DNA of 36,183 bases from a virus (taxonomy: Duplodnaviria; Heunggongvirae; Uroviricota; Caudoviricetes). The number at the start of each line of letters is the position of its first letter. Position 1 is the first letter of the stretch. Under the pieces are notes generated by a model. That model was given only the letters and a program-made list of their open reading frames with translations. It made no database searches and had not been told where the DNA came from. The position numbers and the translations under genes were made by a program. This document shows, piece by piece, positions 1-35,193 of this stretch. The stretch lies in the IMG/VR virus record IMGVR_UViG_2737471857_000022; one strand, 5' to 3'.

Positions 1-351
1 ATGCGAGGGACAGTCGAAATTATGCGTTATCCCGTCACTCTTACACCCGCGCCGGAAGGCGGTTATATGGTTTCTTTTGTGGATATCCCTGAAGCGTTGA
101 CGCAGGGCGAAACTGTCGCTGAAGCGATGGAAGCGGCAAAAGATGCTTTACTGACCGCATTTGATTTTTATTTTGAAGATAACGAGCTTATCCCTTTACC
201 TTCGCCATTAAATAGTCATGATCACTTTATTGAAGTGCCTTTGAGCGTCGCCTCTAAGGTATTGCTGTTAAATGCTTTTTTACAGTCAGAAATCACTCAG
301 CAAGAGTTAGCCAGGCGAATTGGCAAACCTAAATGTTGTAAACCCCAATAA
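1..351 (+). pseudogene. hicB: hicB-type antitoxin gene, 3'-truncated: HicB-like sequence for ~111 codons, then 5 foreign codons (CCKPQ) and stop
   Basis: ORF 1..351. Residues 8-111 (MRYPVTLTPAPEGGYMVSFVDIPEAL...ELARRIGKPK) match my recollection of enterobacterial HicB (N-terminal domain plus start of the C-terminal HTH). The frame diverges at nt 334 and stops at 349-351. Everything downstream is phage-like. Confidence 0.55.
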
Positions 352-372
352 CTAAAATTTTTGCAATAAAAA

Positions 373-395
373 AGCCCCATCACAAGGACAGGGCT
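373..395 (-). terminator. weak hairpin plus T-run downstream of the minus-strand ORF 415..720
   Basis: AGCCC/GGGCT stem (373-377 with 391-395); A-run 367-373 on + strand is a T-run on the minus strand. Confidence 0.3.
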
Positions 396-414
396 ATAGA
401 ATCAATCACTTACA

Positions 415-720
415 TCACTTAATATCTTTCATTTTACGGATACGCGCGCTTGCTTCCGGTAGTTCATCCAGTGTTACGTGATAAGCAAGCATACAGACAG
501 GAGTCGGATCGAATCCCTCATGAGTATTGATCAGATGGCTATTCCCGCCTTTAAATTCATCCTGTCCATCCCACATAGCGTACACGTCATCTTCTGCTAC
601 ATAGATAATCAATCCAATAGGGGAGTTAGTAAGCTGGAAGATGCAGCCAGTAGAATCAATACGATGTTCCCGAACGTCATCAACAGTTTCAAAGTCAATC
701 TTAATATCTTTAGTCTTCAT
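415..720 (-). CDS. hypothetical protein (101 aa), first gene inside the putative prophage left end
   Basis: Intact ORF; GAGGG Shine-Dalgarno about 6 nt upstream on the minus strand; no family recognised. Confidence 0.55.
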   Translation of the reverse strand: MKTKDIKIDFETVDDVREHRIDSTGCIFQLTNSPIGLIIYVAEDDVYAMWDGQDEFKGGNSHLINTHEGFDPTPVCMLAYHVTLDELPEASARIRKMKDIK

Positions 721-1017
721 GATTTGCCCTCGCGTGAAAATATTTTCGATTATTTATAAAAAAGACTTGACAAAATCAAAAGGTACTGTTCCACGGGTGA
801 AATAAAGGGAGTTTTCGGCACCCCGGTTTTTGATGTGCGTGTGAGATTTCAAAACAGGTGCAGTGCAGCCCACCAGCGCGGTCGCTACGCGACTATTAAC
901 ACCAGCCAATCCCTTTCCATGCCTCGATCTTTCCCTTCGTTATAAAGCGTTTTAGGCGCTCTCCTGAATGCGCAGATCAGATAAATAATTTTACGCAAAT
1001 TTAATGGAGGATAACCA

Positions 1018-1578
1018 ATGAAAGAAGAATTAACCCTTACAGAAATTTCCCGCTTATACGGCTATACAATTAACGCCGCTAAGAAATGGCAAGAACGAGG
1101 AATGCCATTTAACACCAATACACGACGCGTACCGCTCAAGGAAGGGACCGAATGGATAGCAAAAAATATCATCAGTCCACTCAGGGAAACTACTGTCAAA
1201 GAACAAATCGACGTAGAGAAGTTACGCCGCGAGAGAGCATTAGCGGACGCAGCCGAACGAGAGAACCAGGAAGCAATGAATCTCCTGATTCCCGTCGGGT
1301 ATGTGGAGCAGGAGCTAGCGGAATACTGCGGGAAAGTGAAGCAGACTATTTTGCAGATCGCCACAATCGACGCTTTAGAAATTCTCGAATCTGCCACTGA
1401 CCAGAAAACATTGAAGAATAAGCTAAGGGAGATCATCGAGCGTCGTTTAAATGAAGTAGGGGACTTGTTCGAAAATGCAGATTTGGGAGAAGACGAGGAA
1501 GAAGAATTACCATTAATGGATGAACCGGAAGAACAAGAACAAGAACCAGAAGAAGACGATGAATTTGATGTGTCTTAA
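1018..1578 (+). CDS. Nu1-family HTH DNA-binding protein with acidic C-terminal tail; possible small terminase subunit
   Basis: N-terminus LTLTEISRLYGYTINAAKKWQERGMPF plus EKLRRE resembles lambda Nu1 winged HTH (recalled). 186 aa against Nu1 181 aa. GGAGG SD at 1003-1007. Not adjacent to the large terminase gene, so the role is uncertain. Confidence 0.6.
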   Translation: MKEELTLTEISRLYGYTINAAKKWQERGMPFNTNTRRVPLKEGTEWIAKNIISPLRETTVKEQIDVEKLRRERALADAAERENQEAMNLLIPVGYVEQELAEYCGKVKQTILQIATIDALEILESATDQKTLKNKLREIIERRLNEVGDLFENADLGEDEEEELPLMDEPEEQEQEPEEDDEFDVS

Positions 1579-1625
1579 AACGCGTTATAAATAAATGTAT
1601 GAAAGATGTTGATGGTCAACGTCTA

Positions 1626-1655
1626 CGGGGGATGTTCTCCCCCGCTTAACTTTTA
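1626..1655 (+). terminator. hairpin GGGGGA-TGTTC-TCCCCC with weak T tract
   Basis: Inverted repeat at 1627-1643 directly after the stop of CDS 1018..1578. Confidence 0.35.
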
Positions 1656-1670
1656 AGAGGATATAAAACT

Positions 1671-1955
1671 ATGGCTACTTTTATTACCTATGCTGTCATC
1701 ATTACTATTCTGGCAGTTATTTCTGCTTATAAACTCGGAACCGAAAATAGAGAACGTGCTGAATTATTCTTAGGTGCGTTTGTTGCATTTTCTAGTCTCG
1801 CGTTAATTGTCGAAGGAATTTCTTATATTGTTGGCCTAGTTAGTATGACACTTTTTAACTTCCATCCGGCTATTTCTATGCATCTACTGCTTACTGTATG
1901 CTGGGTATATTGCTTAATCGAATTTTTAACGTTTGTTTTCAAACAGACTAAATAA
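1671..1955 (+). CDS. small integral membrane protein (94 aa, about 3 hydrophobic helices)
   Basis: ORF with AAGAGG SD; strongly hydrophobic segments (ITYAVIITILAVISAY, FLGAFVAFSSLALIV, LLLTVCWVYCLIEFLTFVF). Confidence 0.55.
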   Translation: MATFITYAVIITILAVISAYKLGTENRERAELFLGAFVAFSSLALIVEGISYIVGLVSMTLFNFHPAISMHLLLTVCWVYCLIEFLTFVFKQTK

Positions 1956-2112
1956 TATTGTAATCTGCCATTTCTCCTTATGTGGTTTTAACAGGGGGCT
2001 TTCGAAAGAGAGTTCCCGGTTAAAAGCCATAAAACACATTCAGTACAGTGTTTTTCATAGTCAGTGACTATACAACATAAAAACATAACAAGTATAGATT
2101 GAGTATTAATCC

Positions 2113-2138
2113 TCCCGCCCTTCGGGGCGGTTATTTTT
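2113..2138 (+). terminator. rho-independent terminator (CCGCCC-TTCG-GGGCGG plus TTATTTTT)
   Basis: Perfect GC stem with UUCG tetraloop followed by a T tract. Confidence 0.7.
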
Positions 2139-2217
2139 CTGGCTTTACTAGATAATGTAGCATTATGTTCATTATAAATCCTCATCTTTGTTGTGCAAAC
2201 CTAACCTAAACTTACTA

Positions 2218-2243
2218 GGGACTCTTCGGAGTCCCTTTTTTTA
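2218..2243 (+). terminator. rho-independent terminator (GGGACTC-TTCG-GAGTCCC plus TTTTTTT)
   Basis: Perfect 7-bp stem, UUCG loop, 8 T. Second terminator about 80 bp after the first. Confidence 0.75.
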
Positions 2244-3182
2244 TTGGCAGTAAGAAAAGTTAGTACCGTACATTTCATCATGAAGCATTGCAGCATTGCG
2301 TTTCTGTTCTTCTTCCTCATCTTCTACATCACTAGAAAAATGAGATTTGCCCTTAAAAGAACGAAGTAATTGCAGTGCAGCCATCGGATCACGCATCACA
2401 TCGATTTTCACTTCTACTTCATCATTTGCGGCCTCATCAGCCGCGTTTTCAACTACTGCTACCGGAGCAACTTCTTTAGCTTTCAGTTCTTCAATCTCAG
2501 CTTTCTGTGCTTCGATAATCTGGTCTTTTTCTTCCAGTGCAGCTTTCAGTTCTGCGATCTGTGCTTCCAGTGCAGCAAAGCGATCTTCAACAACCGGAGA
2601 AACAGCATTCACCTGTGCTTCCAGTTCCAGAAATGCTTCGCAAGATTCAATACGTTCTTTCTCTTCACCTTCATAAGCAACCAGTTCTACAACTTCTTTT
2701 TCGGTAGCGTGGCTGTTAAAGAAAACAGCAAAGTAAGGATTGCCGGATTTAGTGAAGTTCAGTTTAGCTTTTCCGGTAACTTCTTTACGACGACCGAAGG
2801 TGATCTGGCAATCAGCGGTATCCTGAAAATCCATGTTAGGAGCGGAAACGATAGCAGTATCACCAGCAATAACCAGGTGGAACAGTTCAGAAGAGTTCTT
2901 AACGGTAAAAGTAACGATGTGGTCTACTGCAACGTCTTTAGCAGGTTTAACGCGGTCGATTGCTTTACGAATGCCGTTAGGCAGTTTACCGTCAACACCA
3001 AAGCCAGCCGCGATCAGTGCTTCACGATGTGCTTTAAAGCCAGCGAAGGCGGATTTCTGCTGCGCAAAGGAAACATGAGCAACAACTTTCGGCTGAATCT
3101 TCTTGTTTGCTTCGGTGCCAAATTTGATAACTGCTTTAGCGTTGGTTACTTCGTTAGTGAAAAAGTTAGCGGAAAATAACAT
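2241..3182 (-). CDS. hypothetical protein (313 aa) with central coiled coil and acidic C-terminus
   Basis: ORF with AGGAG SD 8 nt upstream; heptad-like EAQIAELKAALEEKDQIIEAQKAEIEELKAKE; no family recognised. Confidence 0.6.
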   Translation of the reverse strand: MLFSANFFTNEVTNAKAVIKFGTEANKKIQPKVVAHVSFAQQKSAFAGFKAHREALIAAGFGVDGKLPNGIRKAIDRVKPAKDVAVDHIVTFTVKNSSELFHLVIAGDTAIVSAPNMDFQDTADCQITFGRRKEVTGKAKLNFTKSGNPYFAVFFNSHATEKEVVELVAYEGEEKERIESCEAFLELEAQVNAVSPVVEDRFAALEAQIAELKAALEEKDQIIEAQKAEIEELKAKEVAPVAVVENAADEAANDEVEVKIDVMRDPMAALQLLRSFKGKSHFSSDVEDEEEEQKRNAAMLHDEMYGTNFSYCQ

Positions 3183-3295
3183 TATAAATACTCCTGTGGA
3201 AAGTTAGTTTTAATTGTTCATTTCAAGCCTCCTTTGCTGCAACAAGGGAGGCTTTTTCTTTTTTTAAAGCCATCATATAATTCTCAGTCAAAGTA

Positions 3296-3478
3296 TCAGT
3301 AAACCTCTGCGGTTATCTTTACTTTAATGTCATACTTCTTTAAGAGTTTATGAAAGGTTGATTTATCGATACCCTCATTTTTAAACCACTCTTCAATTCT
3401 CACACCCGGCGTTAACTCAAAGTAGCGTTTAGCCATTTCTAAGATGATTTCGCGAGTGAACTTAACAGGTCGTGCCAT
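3296..3478 (-). CDS. small HTH DNA-binding protein (60 aa), Hin/resolvase-type HTH-like
   Basis: AGGAGG SD 5 nt upstream; ARPVKFT...GIDKSTFHKLLKKYDIK resembles a GRPxK-type HTH; paralogous to CDS 6886..7113. Confidence 0.55.
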   Translation of the reverse strand: MARPVKFTREIILEMAKRYFELTPGVRIEEWFKNEGIDKSTFHKLLKKYDIKVKITAEVY

Positions 3479-3994
3479 CTCGAATCCTCCTACAATGTGG
3501 ATTAATGATTTCTTAAAAAAGAGCGTTAACCGCTCACTATTATTTATATGGGGATTGTATTTTATTTTTCAACCCCTCACATTTATCTCTTATATATGTA
3601 TTTACAACAGAGATATGTTAAAATGTTATTCAGATGTTATCAGGCGTGTTAAATGTGTTAAACCACAGCACGAATTGCTAAAGCGAAGAACACGATTTAA
3701 CCAAATTGATGTATATTCAATCAATTTAGAAAAAGGCATAGCACTTTTTGCTAAAGCGGTGAGCATTAATTGAGCTATGAATTGTAAAGATTTGTTACAA
3801 GATTTTCTCTCAGATCCAAATCTTCACAGACATATAACAATTTAACAGAAGGATAACAATAGGAAGGAAAATCGGTAAATTTTCACTTTCAATACAAATA
3901 TTATGACATATTTATCTCTAATTTTCAAGTATACCACTGTTCCTGCACAGTGTCAACAAAGGACTTTCAAACCTACACTAGCCCTACACTATGA

Positions 3995-4237
3995 AAATTG
4001 CCCCCGAATTTTTGCCCCTGAACCAAAATCCCCTAGATTTCACATCCCATTTTTGCCCCTGAAACCCACTATTTTTGCCCCTGAAATTCTGGGAAACAGT
4101 GATTTTGCCCCTTATTTTTGCCCCTGAAATGCCAATAATTGCCCCTGAAAATCTAATTTTTGCCCCTGAATTTTGCCCCTGAAAAGGATTTGTGAGAAAA
4201 ACTCTTTATAAAACATTAACTTAGTGAGGGGCAAAAC
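3995..4237. repeat. iteron array: at least 6 perfect and 3 degenerate direct copies of TTTTGCCCCTGAA plus one inverted copy
   Basis: Perfect copies start at 4010, 4051, 4073, 4116, 4158 and 4171. Degenerate copies near 3997, 4103 and 4139. Inverted copy GAGGGGCAAAA at 4225-4235. Confidence 0.85.
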
Positions 4238-4239
4238 AG

Positions 4240-4860
4240 GGAATCGGGCGTGCATAGATATTATATAACACATTCGCTACGCTCATGTGTAAAACCAAAA
4301 ACAACAAATAACCAAAAAGATATTAGGAGGGCGTAGCCCGACTGCGCGAAGCGCTAACCAATTACTTCTAGTAACACTAATTTAAACTAGATGATACTAG
4401 ATGGTCTTAGAAGGAATTAACTAGTTTGCTCGCTCGCTTCGCTCACTCTCAAACGTCTGCGACGCCACTGCGTGGCATCGAGAATCACTTCTGAAAGGAT
4501 TTTCTTGAAAGGGATTTTAAACTAGTTACTAACTGATTCTAGAAAGATAGTAATAATCACTTTGAAGATAATAGTAGTTAACTGGTTACTAGATGATTCT
4601 AGATCACTTTAATGATCATGAAAGGTATTGGTTATCCCTTCGGGATTGCAACCTTCGGTTGCTAAATTGCTTCCGGATTATTATTTCTCCAAAAGAAAGA
4701 TTCTTATATTCTAAAGATACTTCTTCGTTTTGATGATGATTTAATCAAAATCTATGAAGGAGGCGAAGCCGACTGAATACCAATTCCTTTCAAATTAGAC
4801 AAAAATTTCTCGTTATAAATAATAGTGTACTTTGTTTGATTCACTTTCTTTTAGAGGATT
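4240..4860. other. about 600 bp non-coding region with clustered ACTAG(A/T)T motifs and tandem UUCG-loop hairpins
   Basis: No ORF of 60 aa or more with an RBS. CTAG-containing motifs at 4366, 4387, 4396, 4420, 4521, 4537, 4588 and 4597. Hairpins at about 4458-4480, 4633-4645 and 4648-4663. Confidence 0.4.
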
Positions 4861-4866
4861 TCCACT

Positions 4867-5319
4867 ATGATCAATACTAAAACTCCTTTCATTCTTCTGG
4901 GTCTGAACCATGATGATAATCTGGCTATGATGCATGTTTTCGCTAATCGTGGTTATAACATCATTCGTCATTCCGAAGACTCCAATTTCTCAACTGCTTT
5001 CTATGCTCTTAAACGTAATGGTCGCCCTACGGTGATCGTAGACTGCTTTACTGATGAAGGTCGTGAACAATACAACAACATTCCGGCAATTATTGTTCGT
5101 GATGACCTGCCGTTTGATGTTCGTGAATATGACGTTGATTTAGGCTCTTACTATGGGATCGCCGATCTTGACCAGATTATGGCTGATTATGGTAAACAAC
5201 CCGCTCAGGAAGCCCCAGAACACGATGAACAAGACGAAGATGACGACGACTACGCACCAATCTGCTTCTCTTCTCAGAATGGCTTCTACGGTTACGATGA
5301 AGGCTTAGATATGCTGTAA
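4867..5319 (+). CDS. hypothetical protein (150 aa) with acidic C-terminal tail
   Basis: ORF with GAGGA SD; codon usage consistent with neighbours; no family recognised. Confidence 0.6.
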   Translation: MINTKTPFILLGLNHDDNLAMMHVFANRGYNIIRHSEDSNFSTAFYALKRNGRPTVIVDCFTDEGREQYNNIPAIIVRDDLPFDVREYDVDLGSYYGIADLDQIMADYGKQPAQEAPEHDEQDEDDDDYAPICFSSQNGFYGYDEGLDML

Positions 5320-5341
5320 GTTAGGTCAACCCTTTGGCGTC

Positions 5342-5383
5342 TTGTCAAGGGGTATTGACAAAATTTTCTGACTTTTTTATGAT
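5342..5383 (+). promoter_or_regulatory. sigma70-like promoter (TTGACA-17 nt-TATGAT) overlapped by palindrome TTGTCAA-N6-TTGACAA
   Basis: -35 at 5355-5360, -10 at 5378-5383, inverted repeat at 5342-5361; a further TTGACAA at 5392-5398. Confidence 0.45.
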
Positions 5384-5439
5384 TATCGCACTTGACAATT
5401 TTGAACCTATTTGACCTAGATTTGTAAAGAGGATGTAAC

Positions 5440-5772
5440 ATGAAAGAATTTACCATCACTAAATCCCTGTATGACTGGACTGTTAAAATCTCCGGCAAAA
5501 CCGTTTCTGTAAGCCCTAGCCATGTAGAAAATGATTGGGGCGTATCCCGTGAAACTATCTCCCGTAGTATGCATGTTCCGTTTGATCTGATGTCCTTAAC
5601 TGGTATTCATGCAATGCTGGAAGTTCGCGAACAATTCGAAGCTGGTAATCACAATGCGACTCCAGTTAGCAATCACCTTCTTACTAATGAAGAACGTGAA
5701 ATCATCGAAAACTGGCGTTATGAATATGCGATTCCTTATTATGAAGAAGATCAGGTAGAAATCGATTGGTAA
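5440..5772 (+). CDS. hypothetical protein (110 aa)
   Basis: ORF with AGAGGA SD; no family recognised. Confidence 0.6.
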   Translation: MKEFTITKSLYDWTVKISGKTVSVSPSHVENDWGVSRETISRSMHVPFDLMSLTGIHAMLEVREQFEAGNHNATPVSNHLLTNEEREIIENWRYEYAIPYYEEDQVEIDW

Positions 5773-5861
5773 TAAATTTCTATTATAAATAAAATTGTTC
5801 CGGTGGTGATGCCGGAACTAGGAGGACCAAATCATTAAACCGTTTAAGGGGAATTAATACT

Positions 5862-6737
5862 ATGAATACTGTTACTACTATGAATACTGCTAACGTTTCT
5901 TTTGATGCTTCTCTGACTGCCACAAAGAAAGAATGGCAAATCGATAAAACCGCTTCAATGTCTCTGGTTGTTGATAACACCAAACCGCTGACCATGTCTA
6001 CTTTGCAGATCGCGCAAATGATGGATCGCGTAGACCGCCACCGTGATATTAAGCGAACTGTTGACCGTCTCGTTTCTTCCGGTGTAATTGTCCACACGCC
6101 AACGGCGCGCGAACAACTGGAAGATAAATTTGGTCGTTCTCGTGAAATTGAAGTTTATCTTCTTGATGAACGTTCGTCATATATTGTTGTTGCTCAAATT
6201 TCGCCAGAATTTACCGCTTTTATCGTTGATGAATGGAAGCGACTGAAAGAAGAAAATGAAAAACTTCGCTCTACTCCTGTTAACCCGTATGCAGACTTTG
6301 AAGAAACAGACTGGATCGAACTGGCATTAGATGAAAAACGCAAAAATAAAAAACTGATTGAGCTACACATTCGCAAATCCGTAGATAGCCATTCTATGAC
6401 ACGTCTGTTAGGCGCTAAAAAGGGCGCTACGAAGGTTAAAGAAGCACTAACGGCCTTGCGTACTGCTGGCTACATTGAGCGCGTCTACGATGAAAATAAC
6501 AAGCCGTGTGGGTATGTTGCTAATGACTCTTCTCTGTCTTTCTGCCGCATGAATGCTCACTACCAACTTGAGTTTACTGTTGATGTTCTTCCGGTGCTGG
6601 TTGAATTGGGCGTTTTGGAAGAAGAACAGAAAGCAACTCTTAAACTACCGCAGCCAAATAACACTATTCTGATTCAAAATAAAGCGGCTGAACGTCTCCG
6701 CCAGAATGTTGGATCACTGGAAGTCTTCGGACTGTAA
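5862..6737 (+). CDS. Rha-like phage regulatory protein / antirepressor-type protein (291 aa)
   Basis: Segment LTMSTLQIAQMMDRVDRHRDIKRTVDRL resembles the Rha-family N-terminal motif (recalled); AAGGGG SD. Confidence 0.5.
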   Translation: MNTVTTMNTANVSFDASLTATKKEWQIDKTASMSLVVDNTKPLTMSTLQIAQMMDRVDRHRDIKRTVDRLVSSGVIVHTPTAREQLEDKFGRSREIEVYLLDERSSYIVVAQISPEFTAFIVDEWKRLKEENEKLRSTPVNPYADFEETDWIELALDEKRKNKKLIELHIRKSVDSHSMTRLLGAKKGATKVKEALTALRTAGYIERVYDENNKPCGYVANDSSLSFCRMNAHYQLEFTVDVLPVLVELGVLEEEQKATLKLPQPNNTILIQNKAAERLRQNVGSLEVFGL

Positions 6738-6844
6738 TTAATTTTTAGCCTCGCCTCGTGCGGGGCTTTTTCATACCTACATCACGCGACTTTTCGCGCC
6801 ATCTTCCACCAACCCGCCGATGGCGTTTTGGACACCCTACAGAT

Positions 6845-6870
6845 ACAAAAAAGCCACTCCGAAGAGTGGC
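6845..6870 (-). terminator. rho-independent terminator for the minus-strand operon 7754 to 6886
   Basis: GCCACTC-TTCG-GAGTGGC hairpin; A6 on + strand is T6 downstream on the minus strand. Confidence 0.65.
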
Positions 6871-6885
6871 AAAGAGAATCAAAAC

Positions 6886-7113
6886 TCAAAAACCTGTTGC
6901 TTCTACGATCTGACCATCACCGATCTGAACATAGAATTTAATGTCTAACTTCTTCATATTCTTATAGAATTGGGCGATTGAGATCCCATGTTCACTAAGA
7001 ATCTGTTCTTTCGCTTCCTTACCACGATCCGCTGTATAATAAGCGTAGGCAATATCAGCCATCTGTTCAGCGTTAAAACGGGCAGGGCGACCGCGAGTAG
7101 CTTTAGTAGTCAT
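6886..7113 (-). CDS. small HTH DNA-binding protein (about 75 aa from the second ATG; ORF opens with GTG at 7146)
   Basis: RGRPARF...GISIAQFYKNMKKLDIK HTH, paralogous to CDS 3296..3478; GGAG SD suits the ATG at 7113. Confidence 0.5.
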   Translation of the reverse strand: MTTKATRGRPARFNAEQMADIAYAYYTADRGKEAKEQILSEHGISIAQFYKNMKKLDIKFYVQIGDGQIVEATGF

Positions 7114-7148
7114 AGTCATTTTCTCCAAATTAAAGTGAATGTTCACCT

Positions 7149-7754
7149 TTATTTAGAGGACTTACATTTTATCGGAAAAAGTTCTTCATCGTCAATACTC
7201 ATAAAGAACTCTGCCTTAATCCCGTACTTCTTCAACCGTGAATAGTATGTACCCCGACTTATATCAACCTTGCGAAGCACTTCAAAGAACCCTTTAGGAT
7301 CGTTGTAATAGTGGCTATAACGCACGTTAGCGAGTTCAACGAATAGTTCCCTTGTATCACCATAGCCTTTCTTGAAAGCCTCGTTACGATAGCGTGTAAT
7401 TGCGTGATTCAATCTCTTCTGTTTCAACACTTCCCTGATCGGTGTCCACTGCAACCGATAGATAGGACCGTCATCAATGCGATAATAACGCTTGATATCA
7501 AAATCAAACCAATCTCGGACTCTCCGAAACTCTGTATGTGATGTTCTATGCTTCTTAAAGAAGTTGTGAACGTCTGTATAACCATTATCGCGGTAAAACT
7601 CTATTAAAATCTCTTTCGCTTCCTCACGACTAAAGCCAGATGTTGTGTAGTCGGTTTTTAAATGCTTATGCTTAACTGGCAAACGATATTCATGATCGGT
7701 ACAACAAGACAAGGCTAATTCTACTTCATCTCTTTGTTGCTGATTAATTAGCAT
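7149..7754 (-). CDS. hypothetical protein (201 aa) with C-terminal HTH related to the two small HTH proteins
   Basis: AAGGGGG SD 5 nt upstream; C-terminal [16 protein letters not shown] matches the HTH motif of 3296..3478 and 6886..7113. Confidence 0.6.
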
Positions 7755-7841
7755 ACAACCCCCTTAAATCTTAATACCCGTATTTATCAAAATATCAACA
7801 ATTTAATAAATACCTTCATATTTCGTAATGAGGGTAATTAC

Positions 7842-9749
7842 ATGAAACTGATTTCTAATAAGGCCAAATTAAAAAAGATTCTCAGAAATGCAGCCAAATA
7901 TATTACGCCACCGCCTAAACTCCTCCCTTCTGAATGGTGCGAAGCGAATATGGTGCTGGTAGATGGTCCTCAAGCTGGGGATAAAGTTAAATTGCTGTCA
8001 TTCCAGAAAGGCATGATTGATGCTCCTTTCCTTGAGAACAAGAAAAAGTATGTTCTGATGACCAGTGCGCAGATCGGAAAGACTACCATCCTGAACGGTA
8101 TCCTGTTTAACCAGATGGCTAACGATCCATGCAATATGATTATCGGACAATCAACCGCTAAAGAAATGTCTCAATATCTCGCGGGTAAGATCCGACCGTC
8201 CATCGAAGCATGTGATGCATTAAAAGACGTGGTTACAGACAAGAATGATCGCAATGCGGTTAACAACAATAACCAGCTACAGCTAAAAACGAATCACTTC
8301 CTGTACATGGTATCGCTTACCAGTCCATCAACCCTACGTGGTAAGACCGCAAAGGTTGGATTGCTTGACGAAATCGATGCTGCTACAGCCTCAGAAGAAG
8401 GTGATCCGGTGGCGCTGGCTGCTAACCGTTTAACTACCTTTGGCGATGAAGGTCGATTAGTCGTATCCAGTACCCCGACCAGTAAGCTCGGAAGCATTAA
8501 CCAGCAATGGTTATCAAGTGATATGCGTATGTTTTTTGTTCCGTGTCCTCATTGCGGTAGACACCAGGTGATCGAGTGGGAAAACGTACAGTTTGAATGG
8601 CGTAACATCGATGGTAAGAATTTACCCGATCCTGATACCGCTCGTTATATTTGCCCCCATTGTAAGAACGCATGGACAGAAGGGGAACGAATCAGGGCAG
8701 TAGCGCAAGGCGAGTGGAGAGCAACCCGTGAAAGTGAAGTAGCAGGATTCTGGATTAGCCGTCTGTATTCACCTTTCAGCACGATCCGCGCTTGTGTGGT
8801 TGATTTTAGTCATGCGTGGCAATCCTTTGATTTACAATCATTTTATAACACCGTGTTAGGCAAGGTATACGACGATCAGGACACGGCAGTAGAAGCAAAT
8901 GAACTGGAACAACTCAAAACAGATGTTTCTATCGAGAATATCCCTGATGACGTGATTTTCTTGTGTTCAGGAATCGACCAGCAATTGGACCGCGCAGAAT
9001 CTACCATCTTAGGTGTAGCGAAAGATAAGGTTTACATTCTGGATCACCGCAGCTTTTACGATCATAACTGTGAACGATATGAATCACCTGTTTGGGATCG
9101 TCTGGTTAACTTCAAGAAAACCAAATTCTATAACGTTAATGGTGAACGTGTGCCAATGCTCGCCAGCTTCCTTGATACATCGAACGGTCGATTCACTCAA
9201 GCCGGATACCGTATTTGTGGCAAGTGGAAGAACCTACACGCGATCAAAGGTAGTTCATCCGGTAATGCTCCAGTGATTCCGGTTAAACCTACCCGCACAG
9301 GTGGTCATGAATTGCTTATGTTGGGTGTTAACGTTGGGAAATCTGCTGTTCGTGAAATGCTGGTTAGAAACCTGAAAGACAATCCTCACATCGGCTTAGA
9401 AATATCAGAAACCGTTCCTGATGATTATCTCGATCAGCTTTTGAGTGAATCCATCAAGCGTACTACTACTGGCGTGCGTTGGGTGAAAAATCCAGGTAGT
9501 ACCCGAAACGAGGCTCTCGACTGTCTGGTTTATAGCTATGCTGCTTCTCGCTACGTCCTTTCAAAAATGTCATGGGATAAACTCATTGCAATGAAAGACA
9601 GCTTAAACCGTGTTGTCGAAGAACCCGTAAAAGCTCCTGAAACGCAATCTGACGAGCAAATCGAAGAAACTAAGCCAATCACACGACCACAACGTCAAAA
9701 CATCGCCAGACGTCCAAATAGAGGCCGTAGTTGGGTAACATCGTTCTAA
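7842..9749 (+). CDS. terminase large subunit, lambda GpA-like (635 aa)
   Basis: P-loop TSAQIGKT near residue 75, two Cys-x2-Cys pairs ([16 protein letters not shown]); size and position ahead of portal. Confidence 0.85.
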
Positions 9750-14366: not shown

Positions 14367-14772
14367 TAATATGCCGAGACTGAAAATCAAACGCGCCTTG
14401 CAAGATATTATCGAACAAGATTTAGGTCTGGCTTTAAACGTAGAACAAACTCAGCAAGGCTTTAGTGATGACGTGGTTTGTTGGATTACTGGCATGAATG
14501 AAACTTATACGCGTGTTCGTGGTGGTAATGCAATGCAAGCTGAATGCGTTATCGAAATGCAGTTATATTCTCAGATTCATGAAACGAAAATTCATGAGGG
14601 TATTTGCCAGATAATCCAGATTCAGCCAGATAACCCACGATTTAAAGATTTGGGCTTCTCTATTTCAGATATCACTCCAGTAGCTTCTAATACCGATTAT
14701 GACGATGATTCTAGTGATGGGGGTATCGTTGGGACACTTAGCCTTAAATTTTCTTATCTAGCGCGTTTTTAA
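14350..14772 (+). CDS. tail terminator, lambda gpU-like (140 aa)
   Basis: GGGGG SD; DVVCWITGMNETYT...QAECVIEMQL and C-terminal DYDDDSSDG resemble gpU (recalled). Confidence 0.5.
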   Translation: MLATVNNMPRLKIKRALQDIIEQDLGLALNVEQTQQGFSDDVVCWITGMNETYTRVRGGNAMQAECVIEMQLYSQIHETKIHEGICQIIQIQPDNPRFKDLGFSISDITPVASNTDYDDDSSDGGIVGTLSLKFSYLARF

Positions 14773-20575: not shown

Positions 20576-20603
20576 AGCCATCCTTCGGGGTGGCTTTTTT
20601 GTT
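20576..20603 (+). terminator. rho-independent terminator (AGCCATCC-TTCG-GGGTGGCT plus TTTTTTG)
   Basis: 8-bp stem, UUCG loop, T6. Confidence 0.75.
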
Positions 20604-33494: not shown

Positions 33495-35174
33495 TTAAAT
33501 TCCAAATTCCTGTAATGGACCTGATATTTCCTCTTCTGGTTTCCAGTTCTTATCTGTCAGCATGTCTAAACATGGATGCAAAACAAGCCCGTTACTTTCC
33601 AGAATCTGTCTATCATTGATAGTTTTCAAATCAACGAAGATCCGGCCTTTCCTCGGTCCTCTTGAATTTTCTATTACAACTCTCTGGGTCTTGCCATCGA
33701 TGTATTCCAGTACAAACAAGTTTTTGTACTTGTCAATCCTGCTACACCCGATCCGTTTTAGAGCTTGCTTAATCTTAAACCGGACCTTAATGCGATCCTC
33801 GTTGTAAACATCTTCTAAATCAAATTCTGCGAGCTTCTCCCAGCCTTGAGAGTCAACAGAATACATTTCCTCTTCTGCCATCTTGATCTGATTGTAGAGT
33901 GTTTCACGCTCGCTATTGAGGGTAGTAATCTGATCGGCTAGTTCCTTCGTTGCTCCTGTCATAGCAGAAAGGGCAATCAGGTTATCAATCTTGCGTGATA
34001 TCTCATCAACCTGTACTTTCAACGCCGGAACCGGATTAGCCTTATCCTCAGCAATCCAGATTTTATCAGCCAGCAATTGCAATACAGCTTTCTCTAATTG
34101 ATCACCTCGAAAACTCCAGTTTGTATGCACACATGCAATACGACTAGAGCGCATTGCATCGCATGAATAACGATATTGGTTAGGACGTTTGTTAGTTCCT
34201 TTCACCTTAACCATAGCGGAACCGCAATGTTCACATTTCAATAGACCAACACCACTAAGCAAGGGAATAGGTTTAACTTCTTCCTTGTCTCCATAGTTAC
34301 ATGCTCTAACACCAATGCTTTTCTTAAGGTGATAAAACTCAGCGTCATCTAGCACACGAGGATAATAATCCTTTAACTCATACTTAACGCCATCTACAGA
34401 GATTTCCTTGATACCAATCAAAGCGCGGGTATGGAACAACCTTTCAATCATTGCCCGTGACCAGTTTGAATGCCTCTTGTGACTTGCGGCTGGTGGTGGT
34501 GTGTATGTCGCGTTAAGGTGATCCAGTATCTCGGCGGTTGACCGTCCATTCCTGCGTAATTCCACAACTTCCTGAACAATAGGGAAGAAGACCGGATGAG
34601 GAAGCACATAACCAGATGTGGTATCAGTCCACCACATATTCTTTCCAATTTCCTCGATTGCAACAGCCGGATTTTGTGGATTTTCTTGATGAGCTTTAAT
34701 CTTAATCAATGCGCTTGAGTTAGTACGATTGCGCTTAGTCTGACTTTCCTCGTTAGCTCTCGCAAACAACATGACACTCAACAGCAAATCAATAGGATTG
34801 GCATTAACCGATTCCTTGCTATAGACCTTACCATCCATGCCAGTTACGATAGTTATTCCCCTACGGATAATCGAGAGAAATAGCTCTTGTGCTTCAATGA
34901 TGGATTGGCGAGAGATACGGTCTAAGTTTTCCACAACCAGCCAGCTACCAACCGGAACGGATCGACCAATCTCATCCAGAAAGCGAGATAGTGCACCTGT
35001 TCTACTGTTAGCCCCTTTGAATGCAGATACACCAAAATCCTGATAGCTTGTAACTAGCTCAAGATCATATTTTGCGGCTATCTCTGCGGCTGTTCTCTTC
35101 TGGCGTTCATAAGAACTACCATCCGCTTGCTTCATAGACGAGAAGCGAATATACGAATACAGTTTAGTTTTCAT
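33495..35174 (-). CDS. large serine recombinase (phage integrase), about 559 aa from ATG 35174
   Basis: N-terminal resolvase motifs YIRFSSMKQ, SYERQ, LVVENLDRISRQ; zinc ribbon CEHCGSAMV...YSCDAMRSSRIAC; C-terminal coiled coil. Confidence 0.85.
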   Translation of the reverse strand: MKTKLYSYIRFSSMKQADGSSYERQKRTAAEIAAKYDLELVTSYQDFGVSAFKGANSRTGALSRFLDEIGRSVPVGSWLVVENLDRISRQSIIEAQELFLSIIRRGITIVTGMDGKVYSKESVNANPIDLLLSVMLFARANEESQTKRNRTNSSALIKIKAHQENPQNPAVAIEEIGKNMWWTDTTSGYVLPHPVFFPIVQEVVELRRNGRSTAEILDHLNATYTPPPAASHKRHSNWSRAMIERLFHTRALIGIKEISVDGVKYELKDYYPRVLDDAEFYHLKKSIGVRACNYGDKEEVKPIPLLSGVGLLKCEHCGSAMVKVKGTNKRPNQYRYSCDAMRSSRIACVHTNWSFRGDQLEKAVLQLLADKIWIAEDKANPVPALKVQVDEISRKIDNLIALSAMTGATKELADQITTLNSERETLYNQIKMAEEEMYSVDSQGWEKLAEFDLEDVYNEDRIKVRFKIKQALKRIGCSRIDKYKNLFVLEYIDGKTQRVVIENSRGPRKGRIFVDLKTINDRQILESNGLVLHPCLDMLTDKNWKPEEEISGPLQEFGI

Positions 35175-35193
35175 ACCATTTCCAAACAAAAAC

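Follow-up and report, generated by a model that had tools for sequence, protein, structure and literature searches.

Two tandem terminator hairpins close a conserved, structured intergenic module at a convergent gene boundary in an undescribed family of Escherichia coli prophages

Why should two hairpins of the terminator type, T1 and T2, lie some 100 nt from each other on one strand, separated by a spacer of 78 nt and with a convergent gene directly behind the second? The locus lies in a viral DNA stretch of 36,183 nucleotides (IMG/VR record IMGVR_UViG_2737471857_000022; Caudoviricetes), which we call the window and to which positions refer unless a relative is named. An earlier note on this DNA had offered two answers: the stretch between the hairpins could be released as a short stable RNA, or the pair may simply insulate the convergent gene.

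The window is a siphovirus-like E. coli prophage of an uncharacterised family with a G+C content of ~41%. It is inserted in hicB, residues 1–116 of the first ORF being HicB, and encodes a lambda gpA-type large terminase (7842–9749), a portal, a fused protease and capsid protein, a tape measure, tail fibres and a large serine recombinase (33495–35189, - strand). Close relatives in other E. coli strains are inserted in ycdX, hicB or a cytosine permease gene, and the family was found in 63 of 5426 complete E. coli genomes (~1%). Strains with the element include BS74R-D (NZ_CP063332.1), PSJ-22 (NZ_AP027634.1) and UTME-9 (NZ_CP157110.1). A terminase search and a 22-mer search of a one-genome-per-species set both came back empty, the family being absent there. 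Phage isolate databases gave no megablast or other near DNA match to the window (best terminase match 43% identical), and a distant search of phage isolates returned only terminator look-alikes of 38–51 nt. These short stretches resembling the T2 sequence fall in unrelated phages (T4-like, jumbo and Erwinia phages), partly under annotated genes and partly where nothing is annotated.

The rightward unit that leads up to T1 begins with the terminase small-subunit-like gene, whose position is constant in all relatives. The 94-aa protein encoded next gave no family match in Pfam, PHROG, NCBIfam, PADLOC and PDB searches, and in two relatives (L022 and L023) a pair of different small ORFs, of 59 and 57 aa and likewise hydrophobic, takes the place of its gene, with the intergenic stretch behind it staying in place. 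A G-C-rich hairpin with a poor T tract (CGGGGGATGTTCTCCCCCG, 1626–1644) lies between the small-terminase and 94-aa genes and has a counterpart at 1974–1994 in L039, the most distant relative; inside the rightward unit it may serve as a stabiliser or terminate transcription in part. Between the 94-aa gene and the convergent gene are 290 nt of non-coding DNA, and the features within them are collected in the table.

Features of the locus with their positions in the window; hairpins B and C are taken from the minimum-energy fold of 1956–2245.
Feature	Position	Strand	Description
Terminase small-subunit-like gene, 186 aa	1018–1578	+	PHROG 57 "terminase small subunit", E 1.7e-16
94-aa hydrophobic (membrane) protein gene	1671–1955	+	stop codon is the left edge of the conserved module
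Hairpin A	1981–2031	+	51 nt, ~22 bp interrupted by internal loops; begins 26 nt after the stop codon
Hairpins B and C	2032–2053, 2057–2071	+	small, A/U-rich
A-rich stretch ending AUCCUCC	2076–2114	+	directly 5′ of T1; nearly invariant in 39 distinct sequences, including the most distant
T1	2115–2130 (hairpin), to 2138 with tail	+	CCGCCC-TTCG-GGGCGG, 6 pairs, all G-C, 4-nt loop
Spacer between T1 and T2	2139–2216		no detectable feature of its own
T2	2217–2236 (hairpin), to 2243 with tail	+	AGGGACTC-TTCG-GAGTCCCT, 8 pairs (5 G-C), 4-nt loop
Convergent 313-aa gene	2241–3182	-	coiled-coil middle, acidic tail; AGGAG ribosome site 8 nt before ATG

The small-terminase-like and large terminase genes are 6.2 kb apart (1018–9749), which is unusual for a gpA-type packaging module; the gap holds oppositely oriented genes, a Rha/antirepressor-like gene (5862–6737) and a repeat region. 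The latter falls in an ORF-free stretch of 1.1 kb (3773–4867) with at least eight direct copies of TTTTGCCCCTGAA at 3997–4184, spaced mostly by 21–22 or 41–43 nt (13 nt for one pair), an inverted copy at 4227–4242 and, after the array, a second repeat set of the ACTAGATGATTCTAGA type at 4376–4604. On its sequence the TTTTGCCCCTGAA array looks like the iterons of a replication origin, a partition site or a terminase-binding site. Elsewhere in the window, ARAGORN called a 91-nt tRNA-Glu (UUC) at 14537–14627 (- strand) within the + strand block of structural ORFs; the odd length and location suggest that this call is probably a false positive.

That the convergent gene is real, as the earlier note had assumed, is borne out by its ribosome site, its RefSeq annotation and a positional counterpart in L023. 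This counterpart encodes 328 aa and, judged by eye, has a similar coiled-coil middle and acidic tail. The 313-aa protein itself found no Pfam, PHROG or NCBIfam match, and its hits in PADLOC and PDB were at chance level only; the identical protein is present in 2262 blocks of a public collection.

Two perfect UUCG-loop hairpins with T tracts had been described at this locus, and both were recovered, each on the + strand. The tail of T1 reads TTATTTTT (TTATTTTTCT in the window sequence and UUAUUUUU as RNA). T2 reads AGGGACUC-UUCG-GAGUCCCU as RNA, followed by U6–7, and its tail in DNA is TTTTTT and then A (TTTTTTATTG). Folded alone, T1 reaches -13.0 kcal/mol and T2 -14.1 kcal/mol (z -4.5 against shuffles). 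Both have the properties by which intrinsic terminators are recognised, namely a GC-rich stem of 5–12 pairs, a loop of 3–8 nt and a U-rich tract directly 3′; in addition, T1 lies 160 nt 3′ of the stop codon of the co-oriented 94-aa ORF and the structure is kept in relatives. A scan of positions 1–6000 gave 13 terminator-like sites against 4.8 +/- 2.3 in shuffles, with T1 and T2 both listed on the + strand. When the whole window was scanned more strictly (six perfect pairs, at least five of them G-C, and at least six T in the next eight positions), three sites including T1 remained where 0.06 were expected. UUCG-loop terminators occur elsewhere in the window at 6870–6853 (- strand) and 20576–20595 (+ strand). 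On the - strand the hairpins are followed by GAGGAUUAAU (T1) and UAGUAAGUUU (T2); these tails (GAGGATTAAT and TAGTAAGTTT) lack a U-rich tract, so that in this window T1 and T2 face one direction only.

Together they make up the final third of an intergenic module of 300 nt (1947–2246) that begins at the upstream stop codon, a larger conserved and structured element that the earlier note had overlooked. We found the module in all 63 genomes of the family at 86.7–99.7% identity; the flanking 1.7 kb is mostly kept in only 26 of them. The module is also present in 16 of 16 IMG/VR contigs whose flank reaches far enough upstream of the terminase gene. L022 and L023 define its limits: despite swapped neighbours, conservation runs from the upstream stop codon to the last T of T2, and the downstream gene has been replaced by other genes or an IS3 element with the module unaffected. 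L039, the most distant relative (TerL 80% identical at the nucleotide level), has the layout TerS, small ORF, T1, ~90 nt, T2, convergent gene. In all three relatives inspected for this (L022, L023, and L039), the T1–T2 pair and the abutment of T2 on a leftward ORF are kept, with differing neighbours. A metagenome scan with 20-mers for more distant relatives added 13 copies, all from the same family; six further matches were discarded as chance (four inside longer text, one of 24 nt, and one without an alignment to the module). No second copy of the module was found within the window.

Alignment of the 39 distinct module copies (A1) allowed us to examine the hairpins as structures. Five helices were imposed on A1 (hairpins A, B, and C, T1 and T2), and 96.3% of the cells in them form standard pairs. 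Two-sided changes were counted at five pairs, compared with 0–1 after sliding the partners by 1–3 columns, and the covariation score observed was reached by none of 500 shuffles. Helices 4 and 5 of this series pair in 100% and 99.6% of cases across the 39 sequences, with two-sided changes. T1 occurs in nine variants among relatives, with UUCG, GAAG or GAAA loops, 6 or 7 pairs and energies of -13.0 to -16.8 kcal/mol, and its innermost pair changes from C-G to U-G and U-A. T2 has ten variants between -10.2 and -19.1 kcal/mol, all of which fold, and one of them (GGGAGUCUC...GGGACUCCC) carries a compensatory swap of C-G to G-C, a change seen in four sequences. Across relatives, the T1 and T2 stems are capped by GAAG, GAAA, UUAAAU or UUUCGUCG in place of UUCG. 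All 19 variants fold despite these loop swaps, and both terminators are therefore selected as hairpins, with the loop sequence free to vary.

The T1 loop (2121–2124; columns 185–192 of A1) is a mutational hot spot. Its CTTCGG and CCGAAG versions are mutually reverse complementary, which looks like a flip of the loop. The variants of this loop are distributed independently of those of hairpin A, the spacer and T2, a pattern suggestive of recombination, or of repeated template-switch mutation, inside the module.

What, then, does the spacer hold? The earlier claim that no ORF lies between the terminators calls for a qualification, as a 65-aa ORF on the - strand (1988–2185) exists in the window. 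The stretch is effectively non-coding all the same, because indels have removed this ORF from 38 of 38 other distinct copies; no ORF of at least 25 aa is shared among the module copies. Also rejected was a - strand mini-ORF of 7 codons (~1950–1980): its ribosome site is perfect, but many relatives have lost the ATG.

The short stable RNA proposed for 2139–2217 found no backing in the sequence. The fold of the spacer gave no signal against shuffles (z +0.16 on the + strand, +1.0 on the - strand). A loose consensus scan found no sigma-70-type promoter on the + strand, either between T1 and T2 or in 2100–2250, and the region overall has 9 promoter-like sites versus 15 in shuffles. Rfam 15 gave no match at gathering thresholds across the whole window, and at E values up to 5 over 1580–7850 it returned nothing in 1900–2300; a tRNA/tmRNA scan likewise reported nothing at the T1–T2 region. 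In L039 the spacer is the fastest-decaying part of the module, with 54% identity against 86% for segment 1949–2114 and 80% for the terminase gene. It carries an 11-nt insertion in L039 and a 10-nt deletion in L051. On the other side, three blocks are kept even in L039 (GGCTTTA..AGAATAATGTA, GTTCATTATAA and TTTGTTGTG). Within the E. coli set, spacer identity is 86–99%, which could reflect constraint, although the rest of the module and the terminase gene stand at the same level.

This identity would also fit a promoter inside the spacer that drives an independent small RNA of 60–100 nt ending at T2, with T1 shielding it from upstream transcription. The long U tract of T2 is typical of Hfq-binding small RNAs, and conserved -10-like hexamers are present at 2152–2157 (GATAAT/AATAAT) and 2170–2175 (CATTAT, then TATAAT in L039). 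However, reading by eye showed neither a usable -35 nor a TGn extension for any candidate -10, in line with the empty + strand scan and the shortage of promoter-like sites relative to shuffles. The 3′ half of the spacer, which would be the body of the RNA, is what diverges in L039 and takes up the insertion there, whereas the deletion of L051 lies further upstream and covers a -10-like hexamer. Of the marks of an Hfq-type sRNA gene, the locus has the U-tailed terminator in T2 but neither a detectable promoter of its own nor a conserved body or structure, and there is no fold signal and no Rfam match. We regard an independent spacer RNA as improbable.

The best promoter-like match nearby points the other way: TTTGCA-17-TATAAT, running leftward from 2199 to 2171, matches 10 of 12 positions and its TATAAT is conserved in all copies. 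RNA started here would be antisense to T1, the 3′ UTR and the 94-aa gene. The spacing of 17, however, is that of the window and L046 among the copies inspected (a set that leaves aside H61, 99.7% identical over the module); a 2-nt deletion reduces it to 15 in most relatives, and L039 is without any -35. Promoter-like sites are not enriched in the region, and the G-U pairs of hairpin A point to the + strand as the functional RNA. A leftward promoter in the spacer is accordingly the reading to which we give the least credit, and we hold it to be very improbable.

The other edge of T2 raises a different alternative, in which T1 alone ends the rightward unit and T2 serves as a bidirectional terminator of the convergent 313-aa gene. 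The stop codon of this gene (2241–2243) overlaps the T tract of T2 and is 4 nt from its stem, and as - strand RNA the hairpin is just as stable (-13.7 kcal/mol). In L039, the hairpin stands between AAAA and TTTTTT, and its - strand tail is UUUUGAUUU. This A tract 5′ and T tract 3′ arrangement of a bidirectional terminator occurs in the L039-type variant only; in the window the 5′ flanks are AATCCTC (T1) and CTTACT (T2). The - strand tail UAGUAAGUUU, by contrast, is that of the window and of most relatives, and the terminator scan reports T2 on the + strand only. Furthermore, T2 follows the module even when the downstream gene is an 80-aa gene, an 83-aa gene or an IS3 element. A bidirectional role for T2 is therefore unlikely.

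The reading that we consider probable is that T1 and T2 are tandem Rho-independent terminators, which would form the fail-safe 3′ end of the unit of terminase small subunit and 94-aa membrane protein and would insulate the convergent gene. The stretch between them shows no conserved ORF, and the scan gave no consensus promoter there on the + strand, although a weak or activator-dependent one may have escaped it. In such an arrangement, RNA polymerase moving rightward would transcribe a conserved, structured 3′ UTR of ~160 nt and then reach T1, where transcription would mainly end. Some read-through of T1 is expected because its U tract is interrupted; both the efficiency of T1 and its leakage are judged by sequence rules only. 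Polymerases that escape would be stopped ~100 nt further on by T2, with its longer stem and uninterrupted U tract, at the exact end of the leftward 313-aa gene. The pair would keep the packaging unit, presumably late and strongly transcribed, from running antisense into the convergent operon, and the spacer would be part of a read-through tail and not a gene. The insulation put forward in the earlier note fits all of the anatomy: the T tracts are on the + strand, T2 sits on the convergent stop codon and the pair is kept with other neighbours. It would work in one direction only, because the leftward operon has no good or canonical terminator of its own.

A further strong terminator on the + strand only (3225–3264; 12 pairs, tail TTTTCTTTTTT) is found in the leader of the 313-aa gene, between two - strand genes, and L039 too has a + strand terminator between two - strand ORFs (4706–4737). 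The element at 3225–3264 would stop rightward antisense transcripts that had passed T1 and T2, and its presence suggests that rightward read-through past T2 may occur or even be used.

The segment upstream of T1 (1956–2114) is more notable than the terminator pair. The 3′ UTR up to the end of T1 is ~185 nt long, and its structure is both conserved and strand-specific. Hairpin A folds to -27.4 kcal/mol on the + strand (z -6.0) versus -14.6 on the - strand, and the means over 39 sequences are -24.4 and -13.8 kcal/mol, respectively. Several of its pairs are G-U pairs that can form on the + strand only, with G-U to A-U changes seen among relatives, and this asymmetry argues that hairpin A acts as RNA rather than as a DNA site. 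Column pair 61/72 of hairpin A has changed on both sides (U-A in 29 sequences, C-G in 10), while pair 60/73 occurs as U-G, C-G, and U-A, with some pairs of sequences differing on both sides. Hairpin B is invariant and hairpin C has one pair changed on both sides; alone, the two are weak (-4.2 and -4.0 kcal/mol). In the minimum-energy fold of the RNA that ends at T1, the A-rich stretch stays single-stranded, its pairing with the spacer being no better than chance, and a 22-mer within it (AAAAACATAACAAGTATAGATT) is common to all copies. Two conserved, unpaired motifs resemble anti-Shine–Dalgarno sequences: UCUCCUUA at 1973–1980 and AUCCUCC at 2109–2115.

Two other roles for this part of the module were tried and rejected. 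A sib-like switch, in which the spacer pairs with the A-rich stretch, appears as a helix in RNAalifold, but its -12.7 kcal/mol is ordinary against shuffles (p 0.16–0.29). For a site acting at the DNA level, the module has no IHF consensus and the window no second copy.

Could the 3′ UTR be the functional unit in its own right? Hairpin A would then be a processing or stabilising site of the RNase III type, and a cut there, or one made by RNase E close to the stop codon, would yield an RNA of 105–170 nt that ends at T1 and acts on a target through its A-rich, anti-Shine–Dalgarno-like strand. For a terminator, 40–50 nt of 3′ UTR suffice; bacterial 3′ UTRs that exceed this often have regulatory roles or yield sRNAs (PMC7821165), of which the same review distinguishes 3′UTR-derived types I and II. 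A processed 3′UTR-derived RNA is a reasonable proposal here, since the 3′ UTR far exceeds what a terminator needs (PMC7821165), hairpin A covaries and the A-rich strand is invariant. The ~22 bp of hairpin A with its strand-specific energy, the structure-preserving and compensatory changes in it, the higher identity of this segment in L039 than of the terminase gene, the nearly invariant and unpaired state of the A-rich stretch and the survival of the module when both neighbouring genes are swapped all speak for it. Against it, no Rfam family matches, the covariation events that can be counted as independent are few and come from closely related, recombining sequences, and the window holds a single copy. 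The degree of conservation, moreover, is roughly that of the core terminase gene, and common descent may account for part of it. We regard a functional 3′ UTR as possible, in a tentative sense, and it is compatible with the tandem-terminator reading. Going further, the whole 300-nt module may be a regulatory RNA cassette, in which the 105–170-nt RNA ending at T1 would act on phage or host messages and a longer isoform with other behaviour would end at T2; this extension is a rather doubtful one.

The finding is real and non-random, yet it is an ordinary kind of element—a set of tandem intrinsic terminators—in an undescribed prophage family. Taken alone, the pair carries little weight; it offers a clean natural instance of fail-safe stopping, in one direction, where two genes converge, and both hairpins could serve as compact strong terminators. 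They also illustrate how selection can maintain a stable hairpin while stable loops (UUCG, GAAG, and GAAA) replace one another freely. What matters more is the context, a conserved and structured non-coding module that outlasts its neighbour genes in ~1% of complete E. coli genomes. The 3′UTR-derived RNAs known so far come mostly from host genes, and the module, if it is indeed a processed regulatory RNA, would add a phage example to them.

Several known systems bear comparison with this locus. The 6S RNA of lambda at tR′ and the oop RNA are short phage RNAs that end at terminators and have well-defined promoters directly upstream. The small RNA of the earlier note would have resembled them as a short non-coding phage transcript set by a strong terminator; here, unlike in lambda, no promoter is detectable, and on the + strand there is nothing downstream for 2.6 kb to antiterminate into. 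Lambda sib and the R sites of T7 are phage RNase III sites, and the module is like them, and like functional long 3′ UTRs, in that a long hairpin follows soon after a stop codon and the terminator is preceded by a conserved single strand. It differs from them in showing no relation, by sequence or in Rfam, to elements described so far. With bidirectional terminators T2 shares its place between convergent genes and, in one relative (L039), the A-rich 5′ and T-rich 3′ flanks; unlike them, neither hairpin of the window has a U-rich - strand tail, and the leftward gene is without a canonical terminator.

Terminators with a C(UUCG)G tetraloop are known from coliphages such as T4, CUUCGG forming a stable hairpin. 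T1 and T2 both close the UUCG loop with a C-G pair in the same way, but the loop is not fixed among relatives, so that selection is on a stable hairpin and not on the UUCG sequence. The T1–T2 pair of the E. coli rrnB operon consists of tandem, fail-safe intrinsic terminators at the operon end. The pair described here differs from it in standing at the end of a prophage packaging unit, abutting a convergent gene and lying within a conserved structured 3′ UTR; it is like rrnB T1–T2 in its two GC-rich U-tract hairpins on the same strand, ~100 nt apart across a geneless gap, the second of which would catch the read-through of the first.
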